DNA of 62,451 nucleotides from an uncultured Candidatus Saccharibacteria bacterium (lineage in GTDB: Bacteria > Patescibacteriota > Doudnabacteria > UBA920): positions 1 through 62,451 of the forward strand of contig CAZHIA010000009.1 of assembly GCA_964532425.1 (NCBI GenBank). The letters are read 5' to 3'. The notes under the pieces are model-generated. The model saw only the letters and a program-made list of their open reading frames with translations, had not been told where the DNA came from and searched no databases. Below, in pieces: positions 4,994-61,316 of the stretch. The stretch's first letter is position 1; every line of letters starts with the position of its first letter. Position numbers and translations under genes: made by a program.

Positions 4994-5190
4994 AATTGAC
5001 ATAAATGACATAATTGAACAAAATTGACAAAATTGGAACACAAGAAATTCATTAAAATTTATAGAAACTGATTGAGATTAGTTGTGTCTCACAAATAGTT
5101 TCCATAAATTTCTACTAGTTCCTATTAATTCATGCAGTGGGTAGTAATAATTTTGTCAATTTTGTCAATTTTTTAAATTTTGTTCAATTA
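4994..5190. repeat. word-repeat inverted repeat, family ttgacaaaat (about 200-nt imperfect palindrome)
   Basis: Left arm aattgacataaatgacataattgaacaaaattgacaaaattgg (4994-5036). Right arm taataattttgtcaattttgtcaattttttaaattttgttcaatta (5146-5190). Fills the ATPase-stop to permease-start gap. Confidence 0.8.
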
Positions 5191-5192
5191 CC

Positions 5193-6110
5193 TTATTCTC
5201 TCAGTTCGTGCCCGGTCAGTTTCAAAAATACGTCCTCTAAACTCGGGCGTTTGAGTTGTAAATCGGTTAATTCGGCATTGTTCTTGGCCATTGCGTCAAC
5301 CAGGGCAGGCAAAGTTTGCTGTGGCTGTTTACTGGTCACCACATAACCGGTATTATGAGTTTCAACCGCTTCCGCACCCGGCAGCTGCCGCAGTTTATCC
5401 ACTGGCAGCCTGCGCGCGCTTTGAAACAAGATGCGGGAAGATACCCCACTGCCCCTGACCAGTCCTTCCGTGGTGTTCAACGCAATGATCCGGGCATTAT
5501 CCATTATGGCAATTCGGTCACAGAGAATTTCAGCTTCATCCATGTAGTGAGTCGTCAGTACCAGCGTTTTTCCTTCCCGGTGTATGGTGCGGATAAGCTC
5601 CCACAGGTTCCGGCGGGCTTGCGGGTCAAGTCCAGTAGTCGGCTCGTCCAAAAATATCACCTTCGGGTCATTTACCAGCGCAACCGCTATGGACAGTCGC
5701 TGCTTCTGCCCGCCGGAAAGCTCCTTGACCTTGCTGTGGGATTTGTCTTCCAGCTGCACCAGTTCGAGCAAGGACTGTGCGGACACACGCCGGCCATACA
5801 TGGCACCGAAGGTTTCCAGCAGTTCCAGTAGGTCAAGGCCATCAAAGAACGCTGAAGACTGCAACTGCACGCCGATGCGGCTTTTGACCGCGGCGGTCTC
5901 CTTGGCCACATCAAGCTGGTCCAGCAGGACATACCCTTCCGTAATGGATTTGAGACCCTCCATCATCTCTAAAGTAGTTGTTTTCCCGGCCCCATTCGGT
6001 CCCAAAATGCCAAAAATCTCTCCCTGGCGGACATCGAAAGAGATATGGTCAACCGCTACGAATTCTCCATATTCTTTTGTGAGGTTATAGGCCGTTATTA
6101 TTTCTTGCAT
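5193..6110 (-). CDS. ABC transporter ATP-binding protein (DrrA-like exporter ATPase)
   Basis: Walker A GPNGAGKTT, signature LSGGQKQRL, Walker B VIFLDEPTTGLD. Start taken at MQEII (6110); the ORF could extend to 6128. Confidence 0.9.
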   Translation of the reverse strand: MQEIITAYNLTKEYGEFVAVDHISFDVRQGEIFGILGPNGAGKTTTLEMMEGLKSITEGYVLLDQLDVAKETAAVKSRIGVQLQSSAFFDGLDLLELLETFGAMYGRRVSAQSLLELVQLEDKSHSKVKELSGGQKQRLSIAVALVNDPKVIFLDEPTTGLDPQARRNLWELIRTIHREGKTLVLTTHYMDEAEILCDRIAIMDNARIIALNTTEGLVRGSGVSSRILFQSARRLPVDKLRQLPGAEAVETHNTGYVVTSKQPQQTLPALVDAMAKNNAELTDLQLKRPSLEDVFLKLTGHELRE

Positions 6111-6117
6111 ATAAACA

Positions 6118-6144
6118 AAAATAGTCATTATTAATGACTATTTT
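6118..6144. promoter_or_regulatory. 27-nt perfect AT-rich palindrome (operator or weak terminator)
   Basis: aaatagtcatta t taatgactattt, lying between the exonuclease stop (6168) and the ABC ATPase start (6110). Confidence 0.4.
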
Positions 6145-6167
6145 GTATCCGCATTCTTTCCAATTGT

Positions 6168-6816: not shown

Positions 6817-6930
6817 TCTACAAAACTACCCTGCGGAAATATCCAAATCTACGGAAAACTACGGATTCTCTAAGTGAGGATCCGTAGTTTTCCGTAGATT
6901 TGTAGTTTTGCGTAGCTCCGTAGTTATCTG
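6817..6930. repeat. word-repeat inverted repeat, family ctacgga/ccgtag, with a perfect 22-bp stem
   Basis: aaatctacggaaaactacggat (6845-6866) is the exact reverse complement of atccgtagttttccgtagattt (6880-6901). 13-nt loop, with imperfect word extensions on both sides. Confidence 0.9.
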
Positions 6931-7463
6931 AAACCGCCGGGAGTAAGAGAATGGATACCGCCGGGCAGCTGCCCAATGACATTGTTCGACCCAAGACAGA
7001 ACGTAATCGTATAAGTGCTACCCCGGGCGTCGGCTTCGTAATAATATTGATTGTTCGTGGTATTGCACGTGGTACCTCCGGCATTGTTATCTGGAGGAGC
7101 GGGTGCGGTTGGCATCTTGGATATGTAGGTAGGAGTGATCGAACCGGTGCCGAGGGTGGTGATTGCCTGCATTTGTAAGGTCCCCATTACCGCACCGCCG
7201 GTCTGCGTATATCCGCTGCCCACTGAACCGGTACCGGTAGGATAGGCAGCGTAGTCGTTATAGAAGAGCTCCAATGCTTTTGCCACCTGGTTCATATCCG
7301 CAACACGGCGCGCATCTCGGGATTTCATGCGCGCTGAATTCAAGGCCACCAGTACAACGGACGCTAAAAGACCAATGATAGCAATAACCACCAGAAGTTC
7401 AATCAGGGTAAAGCCTCCCTGCCGGCATGAACCTTTCGACAATTGCCCGAATTTTGCAGGCAT
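6924..7463 (-). CDS. type IV pilin / pseudopilin (prepilin N-terminal methylation domain)
   Basis: [31 protein letters not shown] class III signal, then RDARRVADMNQV..LELFYND. Confidence 0.9.
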   Translation of the reverse strand: MPAKFGQLSKGSCRQGGFTLIELLVVIAIIGLLASVVLVALNSARMKSRDARRVADMNQVAKALELFYNDYAAYPTGTGSVGSGYTQTGGAVMGTLQMQAITTLGTGSITPTYISKMPTAPAPPDNNAGGTTCNTTNNQYYYEADARGSTYTITFCLGSNNVIGQLPGGIHSLTPGGFR

Positions 7464-7681
7464 ATAAGTGCCAATGATCAGTTTTTATTTTGTGAGTTGA
7501 TTTCTCAACAATGGATGCTCTTGCTTTATATAATACCACACTATATTTAAAAAGCCTAGTTATTTACCTTATACAGCCAGATTCTTCGTGCGCGAATATT
7601 TGATCAGGCTTACTAGCCCGATCGATAAAAAATGTGCGCATATATCAAAACAAAAGCCCCGCCTTAAGCGGGGCTGTGAAC

Positions 7682-8227
7682 TTATTGGATACCCTGGGGA
7701 GTCAACGTGTGAGAACCGGACTGCAAGCCGCCGGTCACACCACCGAGACAGAATGTGAGGGTGTATCTACTCCCGTTACTCATGGCTTCGTACCAGTAGT
7801 TGTTGGAACCCCTGGCAGCGGACGAGGCACAGGTGTTGTCAGCCGGCAGCGGAGCGGTCGGGATGATACCGATGTAAGTCGGGGTCAAATTGACCGAACC
7901 GTTCGGGCCGGATGCCGTCAAAGTCGTTCCACCAAACACACCTCCAGAAGCTGCGGAGTACGTGCTATTGGTCGGATACGCACTGGCATCGTTAAAGAAG
8001 AGTTCCAACGCGGACGCAAACTGTCTGACATCGGCCATTCTTTTGGCATCTCTAGACTTGGCTCGAGCCGAGTTTAAGGCCAATAAGACCACGGACGCTA
8101 AAAGACCGATGATAGCGATAACCACGAGCAATTCGATAAGAGTGAAACCCCGGGATCCGGGTGCAGACGCTGTTTTTGCAACCATCTGAACTCTCTGGCT
8201 GAAAGCAATGTTCTTCTCTTTATTCAT
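7682..8227 (-). CDS. type IV pilin / pseudopilin paralog
   Basis: [31 protein letters not shown]. The C-terminal half resembles the neighbour (TLTFCLGG vs TITFCLGS). Confidence 0.9.
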
Positions 8228-8381
8228 TATATATAATTTGTTTTTACTGTTTAAATTTCAAAAGACGAATCTCCCACCTTATTATTACTATAGCACTAGA
8301 TCCGTCCACATTCAAGAGATTTGTCCATAAATATGAAGGAATTAATCAAAAACCCGTACCCTGCAGGGTACGGGTTTTTGA

Positions 8382-8963: not shown

Positions 8964-9057
8964 GAAATTCCAAATATCAAATATCAAATATCAAATTAAC
9001 ACAAATGGGCACGAGCGACTGGTTTCATTTGTAATTTGAAATTTGTAATTTGAAATT
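8964..9057. repeat. word-repeat inverted repeat, family aattccaaat (period-7 arms)
   Basis: gaaattc caaatat caaatat caaatat caaatt versus catttgta atttgaa atttgta atttgaa att. The inner pair is acaaatg / catttgt. Arms are imperfectly complementary. Confidence 0.7.
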
Positions 9058-11038: not shown

Positions 11039-11140
11039 TCTACAAATCTACGGATGTATCCTAATCTACAAATACCTACAAATACCCATTGGTGTTATTT
11101 GTAGGTATTTGTAGATTTGTGCCATCTGTAGATTAGTAGT
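11039..11140. repeat. word-repeat inverted repeat, family ctacaaat, with a perfect 22-bp stem
   Basis: aatctacaaatacctacaaata (11063-11084) is the exact reverse complement of tatttgtaggtatttgtagatt (11096-11117). 11-nt loop. Starts 4 nt from the yraN ATG. Confidence 0.9.
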
Positions 11141-11543: not shown

Positions 11544-11594
11544 AAATTAATTGAGCAAAATTAAATAAAATTGAACAAAATTGACAAAATTAAC
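11544..11594. repeat. tandem word repeat, family ttgacaaaat (single arm)
   Basis: aaattaattgagcaaaattaaataaaattgaacaaaattgacaaaattaac, starting at the nucleotide after the 11543 start codon. Confidence 0.7.
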
Positions 11595-11701
11595 TGCAAA
11601 AACAGTGTTTTGCCTATTAAATCACACGGGTATTATAAAAGAAAAACCCCCGGGTGTCGAGAGGCTTTTTGCAGCTAACTTTAGCAAATTTACAAATGAA
11701 T

Positions 11702-11780
11702 GCCAATATACAGATACCTACAAATCTCTCCTGGGCAAATCCGTAGTTATCTGTAAATTTGTCATTATCTGTATATTGGC
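11702..11780. repeat. inverted repeat with a perfect 15-bp stem and word-containing loop
   Basis: gccaatatacagata (11702-11716) pairs with tatctgtatattggc (11766-11780). The loop contains the words cctacaaat and ccgtag. Confidence 0.85.
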
Positions 11781-11816
11781 ATCATATTCCATTGAACAAA
11801 CACCAAATAGTCAACA

Positions 11817-12387: not shown

Positions 12388-12477
12388 TAGTTCTCTCGCG
12401 GATACGCGAACCTCGCGGAAACCAGATCACTTTAGCCAGCGGCATCCGCGAAATCCGCGTATCCGCGAGATAACTAT
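12388..12477. repeat. word-repeat inverted repeat, family atccgcg (copy 1)
   Basis: tagttctctcgcggatacgcgaacctcgcgg .. tccgcgaaatccgcgtatccgcgagataactat. Its termini are shared with the 13281-13372 copy. Confidence 0.85.
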
Positions 12478-12484
12478 TCAAAGC

Positions 12485-13279
12485 CTACACTTCCTGATAC
12501 AGCTTCTCAATCCTTACCGCCTTTGGTCCATCCGTTTCTACCAGCACCCCATTAATGCATGCCAACCCCTCTTCTTCCGGCTCCATTTTAAATTTCCCTT
12601 TTTCCAAAAATAGGTCCAATGAATTTTGTATCTGTACCCCGATAACGGAGTTTACCGGACCGGTCATGCCGACATCGGTAATGTACGCCGTGCCGCCGGG
12701 AAGGATCGTTGCGTCAGCCGTCGGTATGTGGGTATGAGTACCGACTATCGCTGTAACTCTGCTATCGAGGTAGCGTCCTAATGCGATCTTTTCGCTGGTT
12801 GCTTCCGCATGAAAGTCTACTAGTATTATATCACCTTTTTGGCTTTGCTCACGGAGGATATCATCCATGCAAAAAAATGGGTTCTTGACGTCGCCGTCGT
12901 ACAACCGGTCAAAAAAAACTTTGCCATTCATATTAATGACCAAATACGACTGCTCATTGATGGTAAACCGGTAATAGCCGTGTCCAGGCTGGTTTTCCGG
13001 GTAATTGGCCGGCCGGATCAGCTTGCCATACTTTTCGAAACATTCGGCTGACAAAGCGCCTTTGTCGAAGACATGGTTACCAGAGGTATAACAGTCAATA
13101 TCCAGATTATCGAATTCGGCTAGCGTATTGGGCGTCACCCCTTTACCGTGAGCCATATTTTCCACATTCACAATGATTGCATCCGGCTGAAACTGTTCTT
13201 TCCACACAGGCAAAACCTCCCGCAGCGCCCTGCGCCCCGGTTTTCCTACAATATCGCCGATGAATAGTATTTTTGCCAT
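12485..13279 (-). CDS. ymdB: YmdB-like metallophosphoesterase (TIGR00282 family)
   Basis: MAKILFIGDIVGKPGR, VNVENMAHGKG, DFHAEATSEK, GTHTHIPTAD. Lies downstream of rny, as in Bacillus. Confidence 0.9.
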   Translation of the reverse strand: MAKILFIGDIVGKPGRRALREVLPVWKEQFQPDAIIVNVENMAHGKGVTPNTLAEFDNLDIDCYTSGNHVFDKGALSAECFEKYGKLIRPANYPENQPGHGYYRFTINEQSYLVINMNGKVFFDRLYDGDVKNPFFCMDDILREQSQKGDIILVDFHAEATSEKIALGRYLDSRVTAIVGTHTHIPTADATILPGGTAYITDVGMTGPVNSVIGVQIQNSLDLFLEKGKFKMEPEEEGLACINGVLVETDGPKAVRIEKLYQEV

Positions 13280-13280
13280 A

Positions 13281-13372
13281 TAGTTCTCTCGCTGATACGC
13301 GGATGACGCGGACCTCGCTGTACGAGATTCTCCGCGCCATCCGTGAAGTCCGCGTATCCGCGAACTAACTAT
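13281..13372. repeat. word-repeat inverted repeat, family atccgcg (copy 2)
   Basis: tagttctctcgctgatacgcggatgacgcgg .. tccgcgccatccgtgaagtccgcgtatccgcgaactaactat. Overlaps the rny stop codon and starts 2 nt from the ymdB ATG. Confidence 0.85.
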
Positions 13373-14907
13373 CTTGCGTATTCAATTACTCTAGTCTCGC
13401 GTATAACATGCACCTTGATCTCGCCAGGGAACTTCAACTCATTCTCTAACCGGTTGGCTATTTCGCGAGCGATCTTCTGACACCCATAGTCATCCAGCTT
13501 CTCCGGCTTGACGAATACGCGAATCTCACGACCACCTTGGATGGCGTATGTCTTTTCCACACCTTCGAAACTATTAGCGATGTTCTCCAGGTCGGTCAGG
13601 CGCTTGATGTAATTCTCAAGCGTGTCTTTTCTGGCACCCGGCCTACTGCCGGAAATATTGTCACAGGCATCGACAATAATGGCTTCCACGCTCTCAGCCT
13701 CTTCCGTTTTGCCTGTCACATCCGTGTCATGGTGGTGGGAAGTAATAGCTTCAATGACGCGCTTGTCGAGGTTGAACTTTTCGGCAATCTTCCGTCCTAG
13801 CTCCACATGAGTGCCTTCCAAGTCCTGGTCCAAAGCTTTGCCAATATCATGCAGTAATGCACCCTGCTTGGCGATCTGCACGTCTGCCCCCAGTTCTTCA
13901 GCCATGAGCGCAGCGAGCTTGCCCATCTCCACGCTGTGGCGGAGAATATTCTGGCCATACGATGTCCTGAACATCAGGCGGCCAATAAGGTGGACAAGTT
14001 TGGGAGGAAATGAGGCAATTCCGAGCTCATATACTGCCTGTTCACCGGCAGCCTTGATCTGTTCATTAATTTCAGCCTTGCTTTTCTCGTAAGCCTCTTC
14101 AATGCGGGCCGGATGAATGCGTCCGTCGGCCAGCAATTTCTCCAAGGTAAGCTTGGCAATGTGGCGGCGAATGGAATTGAATCCCGAAATAACTACGGTA
14201 TCAGGGCTGTCATCAATAAGAATTTCCACGCCCATCATTTGCTCGAATGCTCGAATGTTGCGACCTTCCTTGCCGATGATGCGGCCTTTCATCTCTTCGC
14301 TCGGAATCTGGACCGTGGTGGTCGTGGTTTCTGCAGTCACTTCCGAAGCGACGCGCTCGATGGCCTGGGCTACGATTCGACGGGCTTCGCGCTCCGCCTC
14401 GTCATGGGCGCTGGCCACGAGCTTTCTGTGCAGCTGGACCATTTCATCTTTGACCTGGCGTTCGGCATTATTGAGCAGCACCTGAGCCGCTTCCTCGCGG
14501 GTCATTTGCGCGATCTTTTCCAGATTGGCAATTTGCTTGGCTTTGAGTTCGCGAATCTCTTCCTGGATCTGCTTAATCTCTTGCGCTTTGCGCTCCGTAT
14601 CTTCGCGCTGCCGGTCCAACTGGGTATTCTTCTGTTCAAGCTCTTTTTCTCGGCGGTCAATGCGCTCTTCGAACCTGACGATTTGCTGGCGGAAATCAGA
14701 TTCCTGCTTCTTGGCTTGGTCGATGATTTCCAAGCTGCGAGACTTGGCATCGAGCAAAAGTTCTTTTTCCTTTGCCTTGGCTTCTTCCAAGATTTTCTCG
14801 GCGCGCTCTTCGGCGCTGCCAACCTTCTTCGACATGATGGACTGCCTCAGATAGTAGCCAACAGCCGCTCCGAGGACAGCCCCCAAAATGATATAAACTG
14901 CAATCAT
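13369..14907 (-). CDS. rny: ribonuclease Y
   Basis: N-terminal TM helix, coiled coil, KH (GRIIGKEGRNIRAFE) and HD domain (LLHDIGKA). Start at MIAVYII (14907). Confidence 0.95.
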   Translation of the reverse strand: MIAVYIILGAVLGAAVGYYLRQSIMSKKVGSAEERAEKILEEAKAKEKELLLDAKSRSLEIIDQAKKQESDFRQQIVRFEERIDRREKELEQKNTQLDRQREDTERKAQEIKQIQEEIRELKAKQIANLEKIAQMTREEAAQVLLNNAERQVKDEMVQLHRKLVASAHDEAEREARRIVAQAIERVASEVTAETTTTTVQIPSEEMKGRIIGKEGRNIRAFEQMMGVEILIDDSPDTVVISGFNSIRRHIAKLTLEKLLADGRIHPARIEEAYEKSKAEINEQIKAAGEQAVYELGIASFPPKLVHLIGRLMFRTSYGQNILRHSVEMGKLAALMAEELGADVQIAKQGALLHDIGKALDQDLEGTHVELGRKIAEKFNLDKRVIEAITSHHHDTDVTGKTEEAESVEAIIVDACDNISGSRPGARKDTLENYIKRLTDLENIANSFEGVEKTYAIQGGREIRVFVKPEKLDDYGCQKIAREIANRLENELKFPGEIKVHVIRETRVIEYAR

Positions 14908-16453: not shown

Positions 16454-16460
16454 TATACTA

Positions 16461-16538
16461 CCTTTGACCTTTGACATGTGACATTTGACTTTCTGCACTA
16501 GCAGTCGGTCAAAGGTTAAATGTCAAATGTTAAATGTT
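16461..16538. repeat. word-repeat element, family tgacatttgac (copy A)
   Basis: cctttgacctttgacatgtgacatttgacttt, loop ctgcactagcagtcg, then gtcaaaggttaaatgtcaaatgttaaatgtt. The arms are near-identical to copy B at 51977-52056. Confidence 0.9.
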
Positions 16539-17945: not shown

Positions 17946-18782
17946 TTAATTTTTGTCAATTAACAGGTCCGGGCGCCGCTTCTTGGTCCGCTTGAGCGCT
18001 TCGCTATGGCGGAATTCTTCCACTTTCTGATGATTGCCGGAGAGCAACACCGTAGGAACCTGTAAGATTTTTATTCTATTACTCGCTGTCCGAGCCGGTC
18101 GCGACCGGCCCCTACCGACCGCATTCTGGACTTTTGATAACTTTTTACTTGATAACTTGATAACTAATTTTTCCGGTTTTGTATACTGTGGATATTCCAA
18201 CATTGCTTCCGAGAATGATTCTTTATCTGTTGATTCGATTTTGCCTAATATCCCTGGACGCAATCTCATAACCGCTTCACTGATCACGAGCGCCGGCAAT
18301 TCCCCGCCCATCAGCACATAATCGCCGATAGACAACTCTTCATCTACAAAAGACCTGATCCGCTCGTCAAAACCTTCATACCTCCCGCATACAAAAACGA
18401 GATTGTCATATTGAGCGAGCCGCTGCGCATCACGCTGATTGAACCGCTTGCCTTGCGGTGTAAGCATAATTATGCGCCTCTGTGCTGTAGGGGCGGCCAT
18501 TGGCCGCCCTTTGCTGGGAGGCCGATGGCCTCCCCTACAGGCGGACCGGATCGCTTTATACATGACATCAGCACGCAGCACCATCCCCACTCCGCCGCCA
18601 TACGGCCGGTCGTCAACGATCTGCCGCTGTCCCAGGCCGAACTCACGTAAATTGATCGGCTGCATCTTGAGCAATTTGCCTTTAATGGCTTTTTGCAAAA
18701 TACCAAAACTTTCCGCGAAGCTCTCAATAAACTGCGGGAATAGCGTAATAATTTTTACGGAAAGGCTCTGTTGCTTCTTCAT
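17946..18782 (-). CDS. trmD: tRNA (guanine37-N1)-methyltransferase with two in-frame insertions
   Basis: VDDRPYGGGVGMVL, VCGRYEGFDERI, SIGDYVLMGGELPA and VLLSGNH, all collinear with E. coli TrmD except for two extra segments. Confidence 0.95.
   Translation of the reverse strand: MKKQQSLSVKIITLFPQFIESFAESFGILQKAIKGKLLKMQPINLREFGLGQRQIVDDRPYGGGVGMVLRADVMYKAIRSACRGGHRPPSKGRPMAAPTAQRRIIMLTPQGKRFNQRDAQRLAQYDNLVFVCGRYEGFDERIRSFVDEELSIGDYVLMGGELPALVISEAVMRLRPGILGKIESTDKESFSEAMLEYPQYTKPEKLVIKLSSKKLSKVQNAVGRGRSRPARTASNRIKILQVPTVLLSGNHQKVEEFRHSEALKRTKKRRPDLLIDKN
18065..18172. repeat. insertion 2 in trmD: GC palindrome plus ttgataac word repeats
   Basis: gccggtcgcgaccggc is a perfect 16-nt palindrome (18094-18109) followed by ccctac. 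Tandem ttgataac words lie at about 18135-18170. Encodes VIKLSSKKLSKVQNAVGRGRSRPARTASNRIKI, which is absent from E. coli TrmD. Confidence 0.7.
18485..18540. repeat. insertion 1 in trmD: 56-nt GC-rich double-hairpin palindrome
   Basis: Outer pair ctgtagggg .. cccctacag. Inner hairpins are ggcggcc att ggccgcc and gggaggcc gat ggcctccc. Translated in frame as CRGGHRPPSKGRPMAAPTAQ. Confidence 0.8.
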
Positions 18783-19366: not shown

Positions 19367-19373
19367 TACTAAA

Positions 19374-19399
19374 AAATTTCCCTGCGGGCAGGGAAATTT
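19374..19399 (-). terminator. terminator after rpsP (A/T-flanked, potentially bidirectional)
   Basis: aaatttccctgc gg gcagggaaattt, a 12-bp stem flanked by A and T runs. Confidence 0.75.
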
Positions 19400-19403
19400 T
19401 TGT

Positions 19404-25192: not shown

Positions 25193-25287
25193 ATACAAAC
25201 ATTGAGCATATAAACTTCATCGTCCGATGAAACATAAAAGCATCACCTGTGTGATGCTTGAATGCTTATATGCTTACACGTTTGTAT
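25193..25287. repeat. nested inverted repeat (words catataa / ttatatg)
   Basis: atacaaac..gtttgtat outer pair. Inner pairs are ttcatcg tccg cgatgaa-like and aagcatcac ctg tgtgatgctt. Confidence 0.65.
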
Positions 25288-39403: not shown

Positions 39404-39490
39404 CCCCTCTCGGGTTTCAAAGATATGAATATCCTTGTTTGCTAATAATAGTATACTATAAAAACCGCAAAAGTTAAAACGAATTTCCCT

Positions 39491-40231: not shown

Positions 40232-40416
40232 ATATCTAAGCTCGTTTATATTGTTTTTGACTCAAGCTTACTTCAATACCTTTCCGTCTCGCTTCGCGAT
40301 CCACCTTCCCTACAAGGGAAGGATTAACTGCAGCCTTGCAGCCGGCTCCCCTCTCTTTGTCTAAAGAGAGGGGTACACCCAGGCACCATCGGATGGTGTC
40401 TGGGTAAAGGGTGAGT

Positions 40417-41637: not shown

Positions 41638-41664
41638 AGTGGAATAGTTAATAATCGCTGTCAG

Positions 41665-42102
41665 TTAACACCCCGGTCCCGACGGGTTAACATAGCAGCG
41701 TGGATTGGTCAAATTTACATGGGCCTGGAACACATTATTAACCAGAGTATTCACGATAGCAAAAGCAAGCAAGACGATTATGAAACCGATAATGGCATTA
41801 GTCATGCCGGTTTTGGCCTTGCCATACGCTTCGCCATTTCCGGCAGAGAGGGTCATATTCACAGCACTCACTACCATCCAAAAGACCGCATAGACGCCGG
41901 ACATGGCCAGCAGAAATGATATCAGCTTAGCCGCCAGAGTAAACATATCCTCGACGGAGCACGGATGCTCGCCATCCCCGCCGCACGGAACCAAACCGGC
42001 AGCGGAAGCCGCAAGCGGGATAAATGCCAGCACCGTACAAACAATTGACGCTATGATCTTATTTTTTGATTTCAACATGGGCAATTTCTTTGCCTTAAGC
42101 AT
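41665..42102 (-). CDS. TrbC/VirB2-like 'T4SS pilin' paralog 6
   Basis: Start at MLKAKK (42102), alternative 42078. Signal peptide and NMTLSAGNGEAYGKAKTGMTNAIIGFIIVLL module. Confidence 0.75.
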   Translation of the reverse strand: MLKAKKLPMLKSKNKIIASIVCTVLAFIPLAASAAGLVPCGGDGEHPCSVEDMFTLAAKLISFLLAMSGVYAVFWMVVSAVNMTLSAGNGEAYGKAKTGMTNAIIGFIIVLLAFAIVNTLVNNVFQAHVNLTNPRCYVNPSGPGC

Positions 42103-42180
42103 ACCATAACTTCGAACAAACACCAAATGCAACATAATGATAGAAAATATAAAAATATAAAAATTAACACAACTAAAACC

Positions 42181-42209
42181 CACCAAAACACCCCGACTTG
42201 TCGGGGTGT
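42181..42209 (-). terminator. Rho-independent terminator after the solute-binding protein gene
   Basis: acaccccgac / gtcggggtgt stem. On the minus strand it is followed by tttggtg. Confidence 0.75.
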
Positions 42210-42246
42210 TTAATCTTTCTATCTTTTATTTTCTATTTTTCTATAG

Positions 42247-44483: not shown

Positions 44484-44554
44484 ACAAATATTATACCATT
44501 TTACATGTAATAATAAAATATCACTGTCGTATGGTATAAGACGGATAAACGTTA

Positions 44555-45063
44555 ATATATCGAATCTACGAATAAGACCTGCCTACCGGCAGGCAGGCGA
44601 ATCTACGAAGGGCTACGAATCCCTACTGCGCAATACGCGATGCGGCAAGGCAGACTTTGCCCAAAAGTTAATTAATAAACCAATTCTAAATCTAAAATTT
44701 TAATATACCTTTGCACTTGTGAAAAATCATCGCGATTTAAAAAAGGTTTCGCTTTACACTCAACCAAAATCTTATCATATAAAATAAAGTCGACACGGTT
44801 CCCTGTTCCACTCACAACCAACTCTCTCCGAATGGGGATATTTAACTCCTGAGCTCTTTTCTCAAATAAATCATTGAATTGTTTTTCCTTAGCAAAGTGA
44901 CCTAATCTATTTTGTACATAAAAACATATTCCAGCTATCTGGAAGCATTCATCAGCATACAAGACTTTAATTTTATCCACTTTATATCTTGTACTCATTC
45001 GTTTATTCGTAGTCCTTCGTAGATTCGTTCTGCGGACTGGCAGAATTCGTAGATTCGATATAT
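44555..45063. mobile_element. candidate mobile unit: GxxExxY gene bracketed by ~65-nt terminal inverted repeats
   Basis: atatatcgaatctacgaat (44555-44573) is the exact reverse complement of 45045-45063. The inner segment gaatctacgaagggctacgaat (44599-44620) matches the rc of 45005-45026 at 21/22. The mobility call is inference only. Confidence 0.4.
44672..44998 (-). pseudogene. GxxExxY / PD-(D/E)XK-like family gene, C-terminus probably frameshifted
   Basis: 108-aa ORF (LGHFAKEKQF, VDFILYDKILVECKAK, QVQRYIKIL). The expected GLLINF motif (RIGLLINFWAK..) is readable only in another frame, between 44613 and about 44690. Confidence 0.6.
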
Positions 45064-46565
45064 TAATCTGCCTTGGGCCGGTATTGAATCGCTTCGGCCA
45101 AATGTTTTGTAGTGATCACTTCAGACTGATCGAGATCCGCTATGGTCCGAGCGACTTTCAGGATGCGGTGCAAGCTGCGGCCGGAAAAATTATAACTCTT
45201 CATCGCCTGGCGCAGTACCATATCCTCCTGGGCACCGAGGACGCAAAATTTCTTGATTTCGACGATGTTCATTTCGCTGTTGGTCTTGCTGGACCCGAAG
45301 CGCCGATACTGGAGACTTCTCGCCTGCTGGACGCGCTGTTTGACCGCGGCCGAACTCTCTGCCGGCTGCTGTTGCATTTTTTCATACGGTAAACGCGGCA
45401 CTTCCACATGGAGATCGATGCGGTCGAGCAACGGACCCGAAACTTTTTTTTGATATTTAAAAATCTGGGACGGAGTGCAAACGCACCGCTTGGCATCATC
45501 GCCGAGGTATCCGCACGGGCACGGGTTTTGGGCGGCTACGAGCGTAAATTTTGCGGGAAACGAGCAGCTTCCAGCGGCTCGCGCGACAGTCACGACACCA
45601 TCCTCCAGCGGCTGGCGCAGCGACTCCAGAACGTTGCGTGGAAATTCCGGGAACTCGTCCAAAAACAAAATTCCGCGGTGAGAGAGCGTGATCTCGCCAG
45701 GCTTTGGATTGGCCCCGCCGCCGACCAGCGCCACGTTGGACGTGGTGTGATGCGGATGGCGCACCGGCCGACTCGTTACCAGGCCGCCACCCAGCTTGCC
45801 CGCAATACTATAGATCTTCGTCAGCTCCAGTGCTTCCTCAGCATTGAGATCAGGCAAAATACCTGCCATAGCCCGGGCCAACAGCGTCTTGCCGCTGCCT
45901 GGCGGACCGGAAAGTAACACGTTATGAGCACCGGCAGCGGCTATTTCCAAAGCGCGCTTGGCCAACTCCTGGCCGGCAATGTCTTTCATATCCATGGCCG
46001 GCTGCAAATTCTTCAAAATTTCTTCGGCTTTAAATGGAACCGCAGGTGCGAGCATCTCCAGCCCGGTCAAATGCATAAGCAATTGACCGAGTGAGCCAAC
46101 GGGATATACGATCACTCCGGACACCAAGGCCGCCTCCTGAATGTTGCCTTCGGGCACATACAGTTCGGCAATACCCAGCCGTTTGGCGAGCAATGCTACC
46201 GCAAGCACGCCCGGCACCGGGCGAAGCTTGCCATCAAGTGACAACTCACCTAAAAACAGTTTGCACTGGGGGTCAAACGAGGTCTGGCCGCTTGCCAATA
46301 AAATCGCCAGGGCTATAGGCAAGTCAAAGTGCGTTCCCAACTTGGGCACATCTGCCGGTGCCAGATTCACACTGACTCGGGTCGGCGGATAAGTGCAGTC
46401 CGAATTTTTAATAGCTGATTTGACCCGTTCCCGGCTCTCCTGCACGGCAGTATCAGGCAGACCCACTACGATCGTAGCAGGCAAGCCATTCGTTACATCA
46501 GCCTCTACTTCGATCAACTCTCCGTCAAGGCCGATAACTGCTGCTGAAAACACTTTGGATGTCAT
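45063..46565 (-). CDS. comM: YifB/ComM family Mg-chelatase-like AAA+ ATPase
   Basis: Lon-like N-terminal domain, Walker A GPPGSGKTLLA and GILFLDEFPEF. Start at MTSKVF (46565), since the upstream codons are word repeats. Confidence 0.93.
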   Translation of the reverse strand: MTSKVFSAAVIGLDGELIEVEADVTNGLPATIVVGLPDTAVQESRERVKSAIKNSDCTYPPTRVSVNLAPADVPKLGTHFDLPIALAILLASGQTSFDPQCKLFLGELSLDGKLRPVPGVLAVALLAKRLGIAELYVPEGNIQEAALVSGVIVYPVGSLGQLLMHLTGLEMLAPAVPFKAEEILKNLQPAMDMKDIAGQELAKRALEIAAAGAHNVLLSGPPGSGKTLLARAMAGILPDLNAEEALELTKIYSIAGKLGGGLVTSRPVRHPHHTTSNVALVGGGANPKPGEITLSHRGILFLDEFPEFPRNVLESLRQPLEDGVVTVARAAGSCSFPAKFTLVAAQNPCPCGYLGDDAKRCVCTPSQIFKYQKKVSGPLLDRIDLHVEVPRLPYEKMQQQPAESSAAVKQRVQQARSLQYRRFGSSKTNSEMNIVEIKKFCVLGAQEDMVLRQAMKSYNFSGRSLHRILKVARTIADLDQSEVITTKHLAEAIQYRPKAD

Positions 46566-46570
46566 AATGC

Positions 46571-46611
46571 AATTGACAAAAATGACAAAAATGACAAAAT
46601 TGAACAAAATT
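46571..46611. repeat. tandem word repeat, family ttgacaaaat (single arm, period 9)
   Basis: aattgacaa aaatgacaa aaatgacaa aattgaaca aaatt, starting 6 nt from the comM ATG. No complementary arm found nearby. Confidence 0.75.
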
Positions 46612-46679
46612 CATCTTAAACAAAAGTGGAATACAATCGTATAACTACCGCATTTTCATCATATTACTACTCTATCTCC

Positions 46680-50898: not shown

Positions 50899-51966
50899 TT
50901 ACTCTTCGTCGTCAGAAGGCTCAACTTTGTTCGGCAATGCTTCACCTGACTTGGCTTTTTCGCGTACGTTTTTGTCGATATCGCGGAAGACTTTGTCATT
51001 CTCTTTGAGGAACGTTTTTGTGTTCTCCCGGCCGACGCCAAGCTTAACATCCCCAAAAGAAAAAGTGTTGCCGTTTTTCGCAATCACGCCAAGGACCACT
51101 CCCGTATCCAGTAAGTCGCCAGTCTTGGAAATGCCCTCATTGTACATAATGTCGAACTCCGTGACCTTGAATGGCGGCGCCACTTTATTCTTGACGATCT
51201 TGACCTTGACCCGGTTGCCGATAATGTTCTCGCCGTTCTTGATCTGGGCGCTGCGCCTGACTTCGATGCGGACTGAGGAATAGAATTTCAAGGCATTACC
51301 GCCGGTCGTGGTCTCGGGATTGCCGAACATGACGCCAATCTTCATGCGGATCTGGTTAATAAACACGACCGTGGTCTGCGACTTGGAAATGATGCCGGTC
51401 AGCTTACGCAAGGCTTGGCTCATGAGTCGCGCCTGCAGACCCATATGACTCTCTCCCATTTCCCCTTCGATTTCGTTACGGGGCGTAAGAGCTGCTACCG
51501 AATCAACTACGATCAGATCCAATCCGTTGCTGCGCACCAGTGTTTCGCAGATATCCAGAGCCTGTTCGCCATTGTCCGGCTGGGAGATAAGCAAGTCTTC
51601 CAATTTAACCCCAATGCGCTTGGCATAGTCCGGATCGAGTGCATGCTCGGCATCGATGAATGCTGCCAGGCCTCCGCGCTTCTGCACCTCGGCGATCATA
51701 TGAAGGGTCAACGTGGTCTTTCCAGAGCTCTCCGGTCCATAGACTTCTATAATTCTCCCCTTAGGAATACCGCCGACACCAAGGGCAAGATCGAGGGAGA
51801 TGGACCCGGTCGGAATAGCTTCAATGTTCAGAGTTTGTGTGTCGGACAATTTCATAATACTTCCGTCCCCGAACTTGTCCTTAATCTGGTCGAGGGCGGA
51901 CTCAACCGCTTTCCACTTGCCGGTCACGGCTGGAGCGGCTGCTGTTTTTGCTTGTTGTTTGGCCAT
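50899..51966 (-). CDS. recA: recombinase RecA
   Basis: [12 protein letters not shown] Walker [11 protein letters not shown] and VVDSVAAL. Start at MAKQQA (51966). Confidence 0.97.
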
Positions 51967-51976
51967 TGTATTAAAA

Positions 51977-52056
51977 CCTTTGACCTTTGACATGTGACAA
52001 TTGACTTTATGGGCCGCAGGCCTCTGTCAAAGGTTAAATGTCAAATGTTAAATGTT
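51977..52056. repeat. word-repeat element, family tgacatttgac (copy B)
   Basis: cctttgacctttgacatgtgacaattgacttt, loop atgggccgcaggcctct, then gtcaaaggttaaatgtcaaatgttaaatgtt. The left arm is 31/32 and the right arm 31/31 identical to copy A. Confidence 0.9.
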
Positions 52057-52130
52057 GTATTATAAGTATACGAACGTTCACCTATACCAGTATACCACAT
52101 GCTCACAAGCACGCAAGCCCACCCTGGGGA

Positions 52131-53086: not shown

Positions 53087-53341
53087 AAAATTCCAAATCT
53101 CAAATTACAAACCTGGGGACGACATGTGACCTGTAACCATTGACATTTGACCGTAGTGCAAGCCCCGTAGACTTGTTGTACGAGGCAGGCCAGTGGCCTG
53201 CCCCGTGTCAAATGTCACATGTCAATTGTCAAATGTCCCTTGTCTGTTTATTTGTGTTTTGTGATTTGGCCCCATCATTCGATGGGACCACCCCGTCGCA
53301 TGACGGGGTGGATTTTTATTGGAAATTGGGAATTGGATTTT
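53087..53341. repeat. two-level nested word-repeat inverted repeat (aattccaaat outside, tgacatttgac inside)
   Basis: Outer pair aaaattccaaatctcaaattacaaa .. ttggaaattgggaattggatttt. Inner pair 53121-53151 / 53207-53237. The core holds ggcaggcc agt ggcctgcc (53184-53202) and ccaccccgtc gcat gacggggtgg. Confidence 0.8.
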
Positions 53342-58616: not shown

Positions 58617-58658
58617 TTAAAAATACGCCAGGAACTTCCAAGAAGTTCCTGGCGTATT
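58617..58658 (-). terminator. terminator after aspA (17-bp stem)
   Basis: aatacgccaggaacttc caa gaagttcctggcgtatt. On the minus strand it is followed by ttttaaag. Confidence 0.7.
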
Positions 58659-58680
58659 CACTCGTCTGTTGCACTTGAAA

Positions 58681-59997
58681 TCATATATGCTTGATAAACG
58701 ATTTTACCAGTTTGTCAAAGTCCCTCTGGCTGATAAATTTTTTTTCTACAGCGAGAGTTCGTATTGAGACTCCATTTTGGACCGACTCGCGCACCAATTC
58801 CTTGACGCGGTCATAGCCAAGTTTCGGGACCAGCAACGTGGCATAGGCAGTGGAAGCTTCCAACAGTTGTCTGCATCGCCGTTCGTCAGCCATGATCCCC
58901 TGCAAGCACGCAGAATCAAACTGTCGCACCACCTCGGCCGAGAGCATCAAAGATTCTATAATGATCGGGACGGTTACCGGCATCATGACATTTAACTCAA
59001 GCTGGGAAGCCGCGACCGCGTGCTCCACAATAGCCGTGTTTCCCGATATGAAATAATATAACTGGTTGACCGCTTCAGGCAAGACCGGGTTAACCTTTCC
59101 GGGCATAATTGATGAGCCGTTCTGCAGCGCAGGCAAGCGAATCTCCCCCAAGCCGGCAGCAGGCCCGCTCGACAATAAGCGCAGATCACCGGCAAGCCGT
59201 GAGAGATCAAGCGCCAGGCAGGATAGTGCCTGCATAAGACGGCACAAGTCAGTATGACTACTGGTCGCGGTCATCAAATTCTTTGCCGGCCTGACCGGCA
59301 ATCCGGTAACCTTCTTCAGTTCGCGATACAAAGCCGTAATATAGCCGCGGGGTGCATTGATAGAGTTGCCGATAGCATTGCCGCCCATGTTAAGATCCAA
59401 CAGCAGTACGGATGTCCTTCTGAGCCAAGAAATATTCCGAGCTAATGCCTCCGCATGCGCTCCAAATTCTGCCCCCAGCGTAGTTGGAACCGCATCCTGC
59501 AGATGAGTCCTGCCAACCTTAACTGCCCGATGAAGCTTTTTCGCCAGTTGTCGCAAACTCTTCTCCGCTGCCTCACTCGCATCCAACACATTTTGACTCA
59601 GACGAAGTGCTGTGATGCGCAAAGCCGATGGGATAATGTCGTTAGTAGACTGCAGGCAATTCACGTCATCGTTGGGATGGACCGTCCGACCGAGCAGTTC
59701 GCTGGCACGGGACGCCACCACCTCGTTGACATTCATATTAATAGACGTCCCCGCCCCTCCCTGGAACGCTGGCAGCGGAAACTGGTCTACAGGCAGATCT
59801 TCTAACAAAAACCGACAGGCCTGCTCAATGCTCCTCTGTTTGGCTTTTTCCAAAGACCCAGTCATCCCACAAGCCCTGACAGCCGCAAGCTTAATTTCTA
59901 CGACAGCCCGCAAGAATTCCTCCGGCACGCGCGTACCACTAAAGGGAAAATTTCTAATTGCCTTTTCCGTCTCATTTCCAAAATATTTTTTTTGCAT
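58681..59997 (-). CDS. aspA: aspartate ammonia-lyase (fumarase/aspartase family)
   Basis: QGGAGTSINMNVNEV, STNDIIPSA and the GSSIMPGKVNPV signature. QGGAGTS favours aspartase over fumarase C. Start at MQKKYFG (59997). Confidence 0.8.
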   Translation of the reverse strand: MQKKYFGNETEKAIRNFPFSGTRVPEEFLRAVVEIKLAAVRACGMTGSLEKAKQRSIEQACRFLLEDLPVDQFPLPAFQGGAGTSINMNVNEVVASRASELLGRTVHPNDDVNCLQSTNDIIPSALRITALRLSQNVLDASEAAEKSLRQLAKKLHRAVKVGRTHLQDAVPTTLGAEFGAHAEALARNISWLRRTSVLLLDLNMGGNAIGNSINAPRGYITALYRELKKVTGLPVRPAKNLMTATSSHTDLCRLMQALSCLALDLSRLAGDLRLLSSGPAAGLGEIRLPALQNGSSIMPGKVNPVLPEAVNQLYYFISGNTAIVEHAVAASQLELNVMMPVTVPIIIESLMLSAEVVRQFDSACLQGIMADERRCRQLLEASTAYATLLVPKLGYDRVKELVRESVQNGVSIRTLAVEKKFISQRDFDKLVKSFIKHI

Positions 59998-60035
59998 AAA
60001 ATGAAAGACTTGCGCCAAAAAGCGCAAGTCTAAAG

Positions 60036-61172
60036 TTATTGTATGGCAGCTGCCACTTTCGCGGCAACCGATTTATCGAGCGGGTTGGGTAAAATGCAAT
60101 CCACAGACAACTCTGTAACATGAGCGGCTAGGGATTCCGCAGCTTTCACCAGCATGGCATCCGTGATCCGACTCACCTGGTGGTCGAGCGCACCGCGGAA
60201 AATACCGGGGAAGGCCAGTACGTTATTGATCTGATTTGGAAAGTCGCTGCGCCCGGTAGCGGTTATAAAAGCGCCGGCAGCCCTGGCTTCATCCGGCATT
60301 ATCTCCGGAATAGGATTGGCAAGGGCAAACACCACGGGCTTGTCTGCCATGCTCTTCACCATATCCTGGGTCACTGCATTCTTAACGCTTACCCCAATAA
60401 AGACATCGGCACCCTTCAAGGCGTCTTGCAGACTCCCGGTACGGCGCTCCGGATTGGTACGGGCTGCCAGACCTTGTTTGACCGGATTTAGGTCATCCCT
60501 GCCGCCAGCAACAATACCTTTACTGTCACAGACGATAATATTCGGGATGCCGTAGCCGAGCAGCAAGTCAGTTACAGCAATACCGGCCGCTCCAGCTCCG
60601 TTGATGACCACCCTCGCCTGTTCCTTGGGAATACCTTTCAGCTTGAGTGCGTTAATCAGGGCAGCAAGCACGACCGTGGCCGTGCCGTGCTGGTCGTCGT
60701 GCATGACCGGAATATCCAGCTCCTGCTTCAGACGGTCCTCGATCTCGAAACAGCGGGGCGCGGAAATATCTTCCAGGTTAATGCCGCCAAAGCTCGGTGC
60801 GATGGCCTTGACCGCAGCAATGATCGCTTCCGTATCCTGGGTGGAAAGGCAGATCGGTACTGCATCGACATTGGCAAATTCTTTGAACAGTACCGCCTTT
60901 CCCTCCATGACCGGCATTGCGGCATCCGCCCCAAGATTGCCAAGTCCTAAAACCGCACTCCCATCGGTCACCACTGCCACCGTATTTCCCTTCCAAGTCA
61001 GCTCGCGCGAGAGAGATTTGTCTTTCGCGATCTCTTCGCATACGCGACCCACGCCGGGAGTGTAGGCTAGAGACAAATCTTCCCGGCTGTTCACCGGCAC
61101 TTTACTCACAACCGCCAGCTTGCCGTGGAATTTTTTATGCAGCTCCACTGACTGCTCGTAGACGTCGGCCAT
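60036..61172 (-). CDS. NAD(P)-dependent malic enzyme (short form)
   Basis: HGKLAVVSKVP..SLAYTPGV, AVVTDGSAVLGLGN, FGGINLEDI and INGAGAAG. Confidence 0.93.
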   Translation of the reverse strand: MADVYEQSVELHKKFHGKLAVVSKVPVNSREDLSLAYTPGVGRVCEEIAKDKSLSRELTWKGNTVAVVTDGSAVLGLGNLGADAAMPVMEGKAVLFKEFANVDAVPICLSTQDTEAIIAAVKAIAPSFGGINLEDISAPRCFEIEDRLKQELDIPVMHDDQHGTATVVLAALINALKLKGIPKEQARVVINGAGAAGIAVTDLLLGYGIPNIIVCDSKGIVAGGRDDLNPVKQGLAARTNPERRTGSLQDALKGADVFIGVSVKNAVTQDMVKSMADKPVVFALANPIPEIMPDEARAAGAFITATGRSDFPNQINNVLAFPGIFRGALDHQVSRITDAMLVKAAESLAAHVTELSVDCILPNPLDKSVAAKVAAAIQ

Positions 61173-61316
61173 AAGGTTAGTTAAAAGTTTAAAGTGTAAA
61201 GTTGAAAATATAAATAGCGAATTAAAATATTTACCGAGAGAACGTTTGACATTTAACCATTCACCTTTGTCCGAGAGTTAAAAAGTCAAATGTTAAATGT
61301 TAAAGGTTAAATGTTG
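61173..61316. repeat. word-repeat inverted repeat, family tgacatttgac / aacttta
   Basis: aaggttagttaaaagtttaaagtgtaaagttgaaaat .. tttgacatttaaccattcaccttt .. agtcaaatgttaaatgttaaaggttaaatg. Begins at the nucleotide after the malic enzyme ATG. Confidence 0.6.

Follow-up and report, generated by a model that had tools for sequence, protein, structure and literature searches.

Miniature inverted-repeat transposable elements (MITEs), such as Correia, Nezha and Chunjie, are non-autonomous derivatives of insertion sequences, and the short tandemly repeated repetitive (STRR) heptamers of heterocystous cyanobacteria are tandem 7-nt intergenic words that form several families per genome. The 62.4-kb stretch of DNA analyzed here (contig CAZHIA010000009.1, hereafter the window) has a G+C content of about 49% and nearly all of its genes on the minus strand, and about 17 of its 47 intergenic gaps contain inverted repeats whose A/T-rich arms are built from tandem words of 7 to 10 nt. 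On balance, these hairpins are probably fast-evolving, palindromic, low-complexity elements, selfish or nearly neutral, that occupy the tiny spacers inside the operons of Doudnabacteria-like bacteria of the candidate phyla radiation (CPR). At least one hairpin family appears to be the gene-less form of an undescribed selfish element carrying a small predicted nuclease gene of the GxxExxY family. The hairpins occur far above chance, are dispersed and lineage-wide, and lie in co-directional gaps with a fixed polarity, and GxxExxY genes are specifically bracketed by their arms. Among the closest described systems, repetitive extragenic palindromic (REP) sequences, bacterial interspersed mosaic elements (BIMEs) and REP doublets (REPINs) with REP-associated tyrosine transposases (RAYTs) are known from Enterobacteria and Pseudomonas (PMC3116915, PMC3333891), and MITEs and REPs are covered in general terms in PMC3184786. 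Intervening sequences (IVSs) with a small open reading frame (ORF) have been found in the 23S rRNA genes of Coxiella and Leptospira (PMC4990558).

The window hairpins work like the REPIN/RAYT, MITE and ORF-carrying IVS systems yet fit the definition of none of them, because they have no REP unit, no RAYT in the window and no target-site duplication and do not lie in rRNA. Like REPINs, they are short intergenic palindromes present in many copies (364 stems, compared with 11 after shuffling), are often intra-operonic, form hairpins from doublets, lack target-site duplications, have a single- or low-copy protein partner and are lineage specific in sequence. They differ in that their arms are A/T-rich arrays of 7- to 10-nt words, whereas the REP unit is GC-rich and 20 to 40 nt long; no conserved GC-rich unit was found, since 260 of the 364 stems have an arm GC fraction below 0.4 and the arms differ between families. 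Their partner gene lies within the palindrome and encodes a PD-(D/E)XK protein (GxxExxY) rather than a Y1 HUH transposase, and the host is a CPR bacterium. No RAYT or Y1 (IS200/IS605-like) domain was detected among the window ORFs scanned with Pfam and NCBIfam. With MITEs they share inverted-repeat ends, a size of 70 to 200 bp, an excess of ORF-less over ORF-bearing copies and tolerance between operon genes, but their arms are internally repetitive, target-site duplications and conserved terminal bases are absent, and the ORF does not encode any known transposase. Forms that have these ends and also an ORF do exist for the family whose words contain ACNRAT, and the ORF is a predicted nuclease.

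As in IVSs, a small, selfish and often decaying ORF sits in the loop of a long terminal-inverted-repeat stem within a host transcript, but the elements lie in mRNA spacers and not in rRNA helices, from which IVSs are cut out by RNase III, and the ORF family is different. A 23S_rRNA_IVP gene with inverted-repeat flanks even shares an operon with a GxxExxY element on one metagenomic contig (L155). Free-standing homing endonucleases, including the PD-(D/E)XK enzyme I-Bth0305I, offer a further parallel, with a small nuclease gene that is present or absent at the same site, a catalytic motif intact in full-length copies, and a cycle of invasion, decay and loss. Here, the D70/E80/K82 motif is intact, the PF13366 match exceeds the cut-off, and presence and absence are seen between relative L019 and relatives L011 and L031. 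However, the target would be a repetitive hairpin and not a conserved gene, and the flanks are inverted repeats of tandem words. Tandem 7-nt intergenic words and several families per genome are also features of the STRR heptamers, which belong to another phylum. STRR heptamers are not known to form stop-to-start hairpins of constant polarity or to enclose a nuclease gene.

The source of the window is a Doudnabacteria-like CPR bacterium. Using its RNase Y as the query, 74 relative loci with 60 to 84% identity were retrieved from species-representative genomes, all of them CPR metagenome-assembled genomes (MAGs) labeled Candidatus Doudnabacteria, Patescibacteria or Saccharibacteria. The window and these relatives provided 948 intergenic gaps, which were searched with a stem finder that counts only Watson-Crick pairs, with dinucleotide shuffles as the null. 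Stems scoring at least 13 numbered 364 in the observed gaps and 11 in the shuffled ones, and those scoring at least 16 numbered 157 and 0, respectively. The A/T-rich word-repeat hairpins in the window gaps are real, and the original prediction of a REP/MITE-like family of dispersed intercistronic hairpins distinct from terminators is borne out by this excess, by their dispersal and by the types of gap in which they lie. The arms are 20 to 55 nt long, with stems typically of 25 to 40 bp. Arm periodicity exceeded a z-score of 3 against shuffled arms in 9 window stems, with periods of 7 to 10 nt, and in the whole set it did so in 37% of the stems with a GC fraction below 0.3 and in none of the GC-rich stems.

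Folding of the window gaps revealed two kinds of structure, ordinary terminators with a GC stem and a T tract (e.g., 7655-7675, 8346-8381 and 19372-19401) and long hairpins with A/T-rich word arms. The RNA folding z-scores of 12 window hairpins ranged from -11.2 to -0.9, with 7 at or below -3.5; most are thus strongly nonrandom and a few are marginal (51962-52070, -1.5; 29245-29330, -0.9). An inverted-repeat finder recovered the pairs that had been noticed by eye, including 6831-6870/6876-6915 (40 nt, 85%), 8973-8998/9032-9057, 16460-16496/16501-16537, 12388-12419/12445-12476, 51966-52005/52026-52065, 53121-53151/53214-53244 and 61241-61268/61281-61308. Both of the perfect 22-bp stems claimed at the outset hold, one being listed by the finder (11063-11084/11096-11117, 22 nt, 100%) and the other being correct by direct reading of the sequence (6845-6866/6880-6901). 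The recurrence of the word ttgacaaaat also stands, with corrected positions: exact copies lie at 5024 and 11581 on the plus strand and at 5150 and 5159 on the minus strand, not at 4994 or 5146, and the copy placed at about 46571 reads ttgacaaaa at 46573. The aattccaaat family is present, with exact copies only at 8966 and 53089 and variants at the other sites claimed. Spurious N-terminal extensions, produced where the ORF track reads through an arm, were confirmed for clpP, recA, comM and rplS. No hairpin matched an Rfam covariance model at the gathering score or at an E value of ≤0.1, the only matches being the 16S rRNA and two tRNAs, and no description of such hairpins was found in the literature searched on CPR bacteria and inverted repeats, which agrees with the initial impression that they are not a described element class. 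The ORF-less elements of the window are as follows.

4994-5189, minus strand: word hairpin of ttgacaaaa words (period 9) with 41-nt arms and a 114-nt loop that contains an inner inverted repeat (5043-5123); extends from 3 nt past the ABC ATPase stop to 5 nt before the permease ATG (4988).
6817-6923, minus strand: word hairpin of ctacggaaaa/ctacaaat words with the perfect 22-bp core 6845-6866/6880-6901 (z -11.1); 19 of 33 8-mers in common with metagenomic GxxExxY flanking arms, in the same polarity.
8966-9057, minus strand: word hairpin of caaatat/atttgaa words (period 7; z -3.6); extends from 6 nt past the nusA stop to 8 nt before the clpP ATG (8957).
11040-11139, minus strand: word hairpin of ctacaaat words with the perfect 22-bp core 11063-11084/11096-11117 (z -11.2); extends from 2 nt past the upstream stop to 4 nt before the yraN ATG; 23 of 37 8-mers in common with GxxExxY arms.
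11577-11785, minus strand: two neighboring inverted repeats (11696-11785 and 11577-11691; z -6.4) between a methyltransferase gene and gene 11543, with terminator-like and promoter-like (11669-11632) sites between the repeats.
12388-12476, minus strand: word hairpin of atccgcg/cgcggat words with 32-nt arms of 88% complementarity (z -8.5); starts 8 nt past the ymdB stop.
13275-13377, minus strand: atccgcg-family word hairpin filling the rny-ymdB spacer (z -6.4); abuts the ymdB ATG (13279) and is orthologous to the hairpin of relative L008.
16460-16537, minus strand: word hairpin of tgacatt/tgacctt words (period 7; z -3.0); starts 1 nt past the pseudouridine synthase stop and ends about 6 to 8 nt before the rplS ATG.
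25193-25287, minus strand: A/T-rich, weakly wordy inverted repeat with arms of 27 to 29 nt, upstream of a VTT-domain gene.
29245-29330, minus strand: weak word array or hairpin of ggaatt/gggatt words upstream of rnc, not thermodynamically significant (z -0.9).
30573-30686, minus strand: word hairpin of aattccNaat words (z -2.6); extends from 1 nt past the ftsH stop to 2 nt before the ATG at 30570.
42142-42234, minus strand: A-rich and T-rich word arms (atagaaaa) around an ordinary GC-stem terminator (z -4.5); ends 6 nt before the ATG of a T4SS-pilin gene.
46565-46620, minus strand: tandem ttgtcatttt words immediately before the comM ATG, lacking a clear complementary arm; may be a half element.
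51966-52065, minus strand: tgacatt-family word hairpin abutting the recA ATG (51966; z -1.5).
53088-53267, minus strand: nested element with tgacatt arms on the inside, aattccaaat-type arms on the outside and GC hairpins in the center; ends 6 nt before the ATG of a rodZ-like gene.
61241-61308, minus strand: word hairpin of taacatt/tgacttt words (period 7; z -3.0); starts 12 nt past the upstream stop, with the malic enzyme ATG 68 nt away.

The GxxExxY genes emerged from an alignment of the ctac family, in which arm-like word arrays are split around two small paralogous window ORFs. Both ORFs (28201-28482 and 44672-44998) match PF13366 PDDEXK_3 (29.9 and 35.6 bits, cut-off 22) and TIGR04256 GxxExxY, and both are bracketed by complementary word arrays, as detailed in the next two lines.

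28042-28551, minus strand: ORF-bearing element 1, directly upstream of smc, with ctacaaat words; 5' word array 28483-28551, 3' word array 28042-28130, inverted repeat 28066-28086/28481-28501; truncated GxxExxY/PDDEXK_3 gene 28201-28482 with a C-terminal remnant at 28093-28200.
44540-45066, minus strand: ORF-bearing element 2, overlapping the comM stop codon at its 5' end; perfect terminal inverted repeats of 22 nt at 44552-44573/45045-45066 (TTAATATATCGAATCTACGAAT), inner inverted repeat 44598-44620/45005-45027; truncated GxxExxY/PDDEXK_3 gene 44672-44998 with a remnant at 44613-44699.

A hidden Markov model (HMM) search of the relatives' loci yielded three more copies, two inside the rny-ymdB gap (L011 and L031) and one upstream of smc (L052), the position of element 1, and all five copies of the clade are bracketed by word arms. 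Full-length homologues are 125 to 127 amino acids long. C-terminal remnants were detected by HMM past the stops of both window ORFs and the L052 copy is split, and therefore three of the five copies are decaying. At the rny-ymdB site, L019 has an ORF-less hairpin that can be aligned to the L011 and L031 elements along both arms, the only gap, of about 375 nt, corresponding to the ORF, so that by alignment the ORF-less hairpin is evidently allelic to an ORF-bearing element, present or absent between conserved flanks.

A metagenome scan with an alignment of four GxxExxY proteins retrieved 80 loci, in which 72 genes could be tested against 65 other genes on the same contigs. Flanking complementarity of at least 14 was found for 63 of the 72 GxxExxY genes and 4 of the 65 controls, and complementarity of at least 20 for 49 and 0, respectively. 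In four cases the GxxExxY domain lies inside a large protein, and these have no arms. The genes are co-oriented with both neighbors in 55 of 62 cases. ACNRAT occurs 129 times in the 5' arms of ORF-bearing elements, against 4 occurrences of its reverse complement, and the corresponding numbers for the solo stems of the Doudnabacteria set (n = 254) are 136 and 6; at least two ACNRAT words in the right polarity occur in 53 of these 254 stems, against 8 in shuffled sequence and 3 in the opposite polarity. The window hairpins at 6831-6915, 11040-11139 and 11696-11785 have 12 to 23 8-mers in common with the GxxExxY arms, again in the same polarity. A more distant Parcubacteria contig (L163) has two GxxExxY genes, each between TACTAAT arms, and an ORF-less TACTAAT hairpin (7645-7660/7676-7691) in a neighboring gap, all three within 3 kb. 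The nuclease link thus holds only for the ACNRAT word class, and its extension to the other families is by analogy, suggested because they share architecture, position, polarity and turnover.

The placement of the hairpins is highly constrained. Wordy stems are present in 73 of the 733 co-directional gaps, in none of the 107 convergent gaps (Fisher p = 6e-5) and in 5 of the 108 divergent gaps, while GC-rich stems show the opposite pattern and occur in 19% of convergent gaps. In total, 42 of the 74 wordy stems begin 0 to 9 nt past the upstream stop (mode 0), and an in-frame ATG lies 0 to 14 nt past the 3' arm in 45 of 74 (mode 7), against 5 of 42 GC-rich stems. Read in the sense of the host genes, 57 stems have the A-rich arm on the 5' side and 14 have it on the other side (p = 3e-7), and T makes up 43% of the T-rich 3' arms. 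Good promoter sites of the sigma-70 type and terminator-like sites are found elsewhere, and therefore the hairpins lie inside operons; one operon, for example, runs from a promoter at 15153 through rny, a hairpin, ymdB and a second hairpin to the methyltransferase gene. Removal of the hairpin would leave a spacer with a median of 11 nt, and 251 of the 1,002 co-directional gene pairs have gaps of less than 25 nt. The hairpins are close to both stop and start because the native spacers are tiny, and a position on the start codon is how any insertion into such spacers would look. The stop-codon abutment, the fixed polarity, the absence from convergent gaps and the nuclease pseudogenes inside the ctac arms had all been overlooked in the original prediction.

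Of 14 genes said to have an arm at the start codon, about 11 or 12 do, and the malic enzyme gene (68 nt) and the 12350 gene (37 nt) do not; eight window stems end between -1 and 8 nt before an in-frame ATG, and three or four more starts (ymdB, smc, comM and rnc) are abutted once the outer words are counted. The statement that such genes lack a Shine-Dalgarno (SD) sequence agrees with the absence of an SD core at 12 of the 17 starts checked, the remaining matches being arm words such as AGGA or AAGG. Over all called starts of the window and loci, however, an SD-like core precedes only 17% of ATG starts against a background of 8%, and therefore the absence of SD is a trait of the lineage and not of the hairpins. 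The called starts have T at -1 in 63% of ATGs and are A-rich at -6 to -4. The 16S rRNA of the relatives keeps CCTCC (GATCACCTCCTT). Part of the Parcubacteria is reported to have lost the anti-SD, and in members without it helix h26 is reported as conserved, with an unknown role (PMC9297842). A leaderless-promoter reading was discarded, as positions -12 to -7 before hairpin-adjacent ATGs are not -10-like and good sigma-70 sites lie elsewhere.

The hairpins turn over rapidly. The rny-ymdB gap is syntenic in 72 loci, and about 25 relatives have a word hairpin there, drawn from at least 10 different word families, with words including tagtagcaag, ccaagaacc, attcgga, ttgaaaa, catgcttc and atccgcg, the last being common to L008 and the window. 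Close relatives thus hold such elements at this orthologous site, whereas in more distant relatives the two genes overlap or lie less than 40 nt apart and have no hairpin between them. Overall, hairpins occur in most of the approximately 60 relatives with an RNase Y identity of at least 73% and are rare below this value. Two relatives (L039 and L040) that are 89% identical over 13.7 kb contain, in two orthologous gaps, unalignable hairpins of different words, so that hairpins are replaced even between 89%-identical genomes. Two window hairpins, at 16460 and 51966, have nearly the same arms (31 of 31 nt match in the 5' arm) but different loops and flanks, which indicates a dispersed repeat. In the rny-ymdB gap of L013 (3334-3438), the 3' arm consists of eight tandem catgcttc words, each with an ATG, and the 5' arm of about three words; this arm expansion looks like ongoing slippage.

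If the hairpins are selfish or nearly neutral elements, the full-length form would comprise a 5' arm of A-rich tandem words, a GxxExxY gene of about 125 codons and a 3' arm of complementary words, with the word core ACNRAT (e.g., ctACGAAT, atACTAAT and ctACAAAT) and the whole unit co-oriented with the host operon. Short hairpins, having the same two arms around a short loop, would be ORF-less derivatives or empty sites and would relate to the full form as REPINs and MITEs do to their autonomous partners. The predicted nuclease would recognize the repeated words, and the element may spread by homing, in which empty hairpins are cut and repaired from a filled copy, or alternatively by an atypical transposition without target-site duplication, with decay and loss of the ORF leaving a hairpin. 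Words would be gained and lost by replication slippage, and complementarity would be kept by template switching within the element. Elements would persist only inside operons and in the sense polarity because the ORF would depend on host transcription, and this dependence would explain why the units are co-oriented, why they are restricted to co-directional gaps and why ORF-less copies inherit their polarity. Once transcribed, the arms would pair and loop out the insert, so that the upstream stop would stay about 10 to 15 nt from the next start; this would probably preserve coupled translation in an SD-poor lineage and make the insertion harmless in the mRNA. The families without ACNRAT (tgacatt, ttgacaaaa, aattccNaat and atccgcg) may be analogous elements whose ORF partners are unsampled.

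Several results weigh against this reading. ACNRAT words occur in only 53 of the 254 A/T-rich stems (about one-fifth) and in 12 of the 74 most periodic ones, and the tgacatt, ttgacaaaa, aattccNaat and atccgcg arms share almost no 8-mers with the sampled GxxExxY arms. No ORF-bearing copy was found for these four families, tgacatt copies were absent from the 162 other loci searched, and an HMM search of all short ORFs detected no additional GxxExxY remnant in any solo hairpin. Direct repeats of 2 to 8 nt, such as target-site duplications would produce, are no more frequent at the stem ends than at offset controls, and no conserved termini were found there. No activity of any GxxExxY, PDDEXK_3, PF13366 or TIGR04256 protein was found in the literature searched. 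The order of events may also run either way, with ORF loss giving rise to hairpins or with ORFs invading pre-existing hairpins. Finally, stem mismatches in the sense strand show no excess of G-U over A-C (85 versus 96), but this test is flat in GC-rich control stems as well (25 versus 24) and is therefore weak, with little power to exclude selection at the RNA level.

That last point matters for the view that the hairpins are host-functional intercistronic RNA elements, serving RNase III or RNase Y processing or stability, stop-start coupling or as a stand-in for the SD helix, with the GxxExxY genes as secondary parasites homing into the loops of one family. We consider this unlikely. It would suit hairpins that are strictly intercistronic and sense-oriented, whose modal distance of 7 nt from the 3' arm to the ATG equals the usual SD-to-start spacing and whose stems of 25 to 40 bp suffice for RNase III, in a lineage that is SD-poor although its 16S rRNA keeps CCTCC; rny lies in the window, as presumably does rnc, most word families have no known ORF partner, and helix h26 is reported to be conserved in Parcubacteria lacking the anti-SD (PMC9297842). 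However, the same gaps are hairpin-free in many relatives, with genes overlapping or less than 40 nt apart, hairpins are replaced wholesale between 89%-identical genomes, the stability of several hardly exceeds that of shuffled sequence (z -0.9 to -3), G-U mismatches do not outnumber A-C ones in the sense strand, and the closeness to stop and start follows from the tiny native spacers. The suggested role in translation initiation or RNA processing thus finds no computed support, since the elements are dispensable and turn over fast and the lack of SD is lineage-wide.

The hairpins might also be a mutational by-product in which A/T-rich spacers grow by replication slippage and template switching perfects the quasi-palindromes, with neither mobility nor function. 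Unequal word numbers between arms (e.g., the eight catgcttc words of L013), the perfect 22-bp cores, the symmetry of G-U and A-C, the lineage-specific word families and the failure to find target-site duplications are all compatible with such an origin. Nevertheless, it is quite improbable, as near-identical arms occur at unlinked sites with different loops, the same words recur in the same polarity on distant contigs around one specific gene family, and slippage alone predicts neither the absence from all 107 convergent gaps nor the strong polarity bias. Atypical intrinsic terminators or attenuators, with U-rich 3' arms in place of a U tract, are very unlikely: although the 3' arms are 43% T, each word has a run of three or four T, and the element at 42142-42234 encloses a canonical terminator, none of the 107 convergent gaps has a wordy stem while GC-rich stems are enriched there (19%), the next gene usually starts less than 15 nt away and leaves no room for a promoter, and the genome has ordinary terminators. 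A T-rich tail follows only 9 of the 74 wordy stems, in line with the observation that most hairpins lack a U tract, and the terminator reading was rejected on the gap-type distribution, the missing T tracts and an arm GC fraction mostly below 0.4. It is scarcely credible that the word arrays are DNA-level sites, such as operators, iterons, DNA-uptake sequences or attC-like recombination sites. The words are indeed tandem and in inverted pairs, some contain TTGACA, and pilin genes and comM lie in the window; yet each genome has many unrelated word families that differ in close relatives, and the flanked genes are syntenic housekeeping genes and not cassettes. The attC/integron variant was rejected because no integrase or transposase is present among the window ORFs and the flanked genes are syntenic, with rny-ymdB conserved in 72 loci.

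In the GxxExxY protein, variation is absent or almost absent at the catalytic residues D70, E80 and K82 (the D...ExK motif) and in the GxxExxY motif. An AlphaFold model based on a 47-sequence alignment reached a mean predicted local distance difference test score (pLDDT) of 91.6, whereas with 26 close homologues it reached only 57. The model has the alpha-beta-beta-beta-alpha-beta core of PD-(D/E)XK enzymes. Matches to PDB folds are at the superfamily level only (template modeling score ≤0.52), the weak neighbors being Cas4 SSO0001, an alkaline exonuclease, the tRNA-splicing endonucleases (EndA), Hjc and I-Bth0305I (PDB 3r3p). A PDB sequence search matched no solved structure, and PADLOC and PHROGs gave no informative matches. 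The family comprises at least 3,235 representative clusters at 50% identity (E ≤ 1e-3), and all named matches come from Patescibacteria, Parcubacteria or unclassified bacterium MAGs. The only statement found in the searched literature gives "function unknown" and "multiple transfers" (PMC3424549). Many PDDEXK_3 matches lie inside proteins of 270 to 900 amino acids (representative-library matches P0038-P0078 and others); these large proteins may be real fusions or read-through gene calls from stop-free arms.

A bolder proposal, conceivable though rather doubtful, is that GxxExxY proteins are the enzymes of a new class of mobile elements, which would recognize hairpins or cruciforms of tandem 7- to 10-nt words and move by homing or by transposition free of target-site duplication. 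Cutting and repair would then build the word arrays, and ORF-less hairpins would have been co-opted in SD-poor CPR operons as intercistronic RNA structures that organize polycistronic mRNA expression, acting either like an SD helix or as targets of RNase III.

The selfish or near-neutral reading would explain the odd intergenic DNA of a whole clade of ultra-small CPR bacteria and would give the widespread, uncharacterized GxxExxY/PDDEXK_3 family its first concrete and testable functional context. A PD-(D/E)XK nuclease would be the third type of enzyme among the partners of bacterial palindromic repeats, and streamlined, SD-poor genomes would tolerate selfish DNA specifically inside operons. 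The same hairpin DNA corrupts gene calls, in which arms appear as N-terminal extensions and ORFs may be joined together. Strains of uncultured CPR lineages could be told apart with these elements as markers, and, if the nuclease is word-specific, the elements could also yield new sequence- or structure-specific nucleases.

The window encodes housekeeping genes for an ABC transporter, a DEDD exonuclease, clpP, nusA, yraN, a methyltransferase, the TIGR00282 phosphoesterase (ymdB), RNase Y, trmD, ftsH, comM, a rodZ-like protein, ftsK and malic enzyme. The genes called rplS, smc, rnc (28552-29244) and recA carry putative names from an earlier annotation, and their N termini read as expected. At its edge (1-322), the window holds the 5' 354 nt of a 16S rRNA gene, in minus orientation; two tRNA genes are also present, and the synteny from rny to the 16S rRNA gene is common to the window and relatives L007, L016, L022 and L036. 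A type IV pilin-like gene at 6924-7463 has an N_methyl motif by domain scan, and 7682-8227 is presumably a second such gene, judging from its N terminus (the pair spans 6924-8227). A run of six further pilin genes lies within 37678-42186:

37678-38463, 38467-38853, 38993-39403, 39491-40231, 40417-41637 and 41665-42186: T4SS_pilin genes (PF18895).

Perfect or near-perfect GC-rich palindromes at 37568-37617 and 37426-37456 lie in a convergent gap, resemble bidirectional terminators and contrast with the word hairpins. Other small, selfish-looking genes flanked by inverted repeats are found in housekeeping operons of the wider set, at L155 2060-2452 and 5635-6000, L010 10073-10475 and L067 15806-16221. 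These are DUF559 (Vsr-like) endonuclease genes, whose flanks are GC-rich, and a 23S_rRNA_IVP gene. On L155, GxxExxY, 23S_rRNA_IVP and DUF559 genes with inverted-repeat flanks are interspersed in housekeeping operons, the 23S_rRNA_IVP (four-helix-bundle) gene lying between rpiB and rpe in the operon of the GxxExxY element, which suggests that CPR genomes host a broader guild of mini-elements of this kind. The trmD ORF also contains a GC-rich palindrome whose arms are 25 nt long (18485-18540). This palindrome lies in an ORF whose Pfam tRNA_m1G_MT match spans 242 residues on a 195-position profile, and may be an in-frame palindromic insertion in a coding gene.

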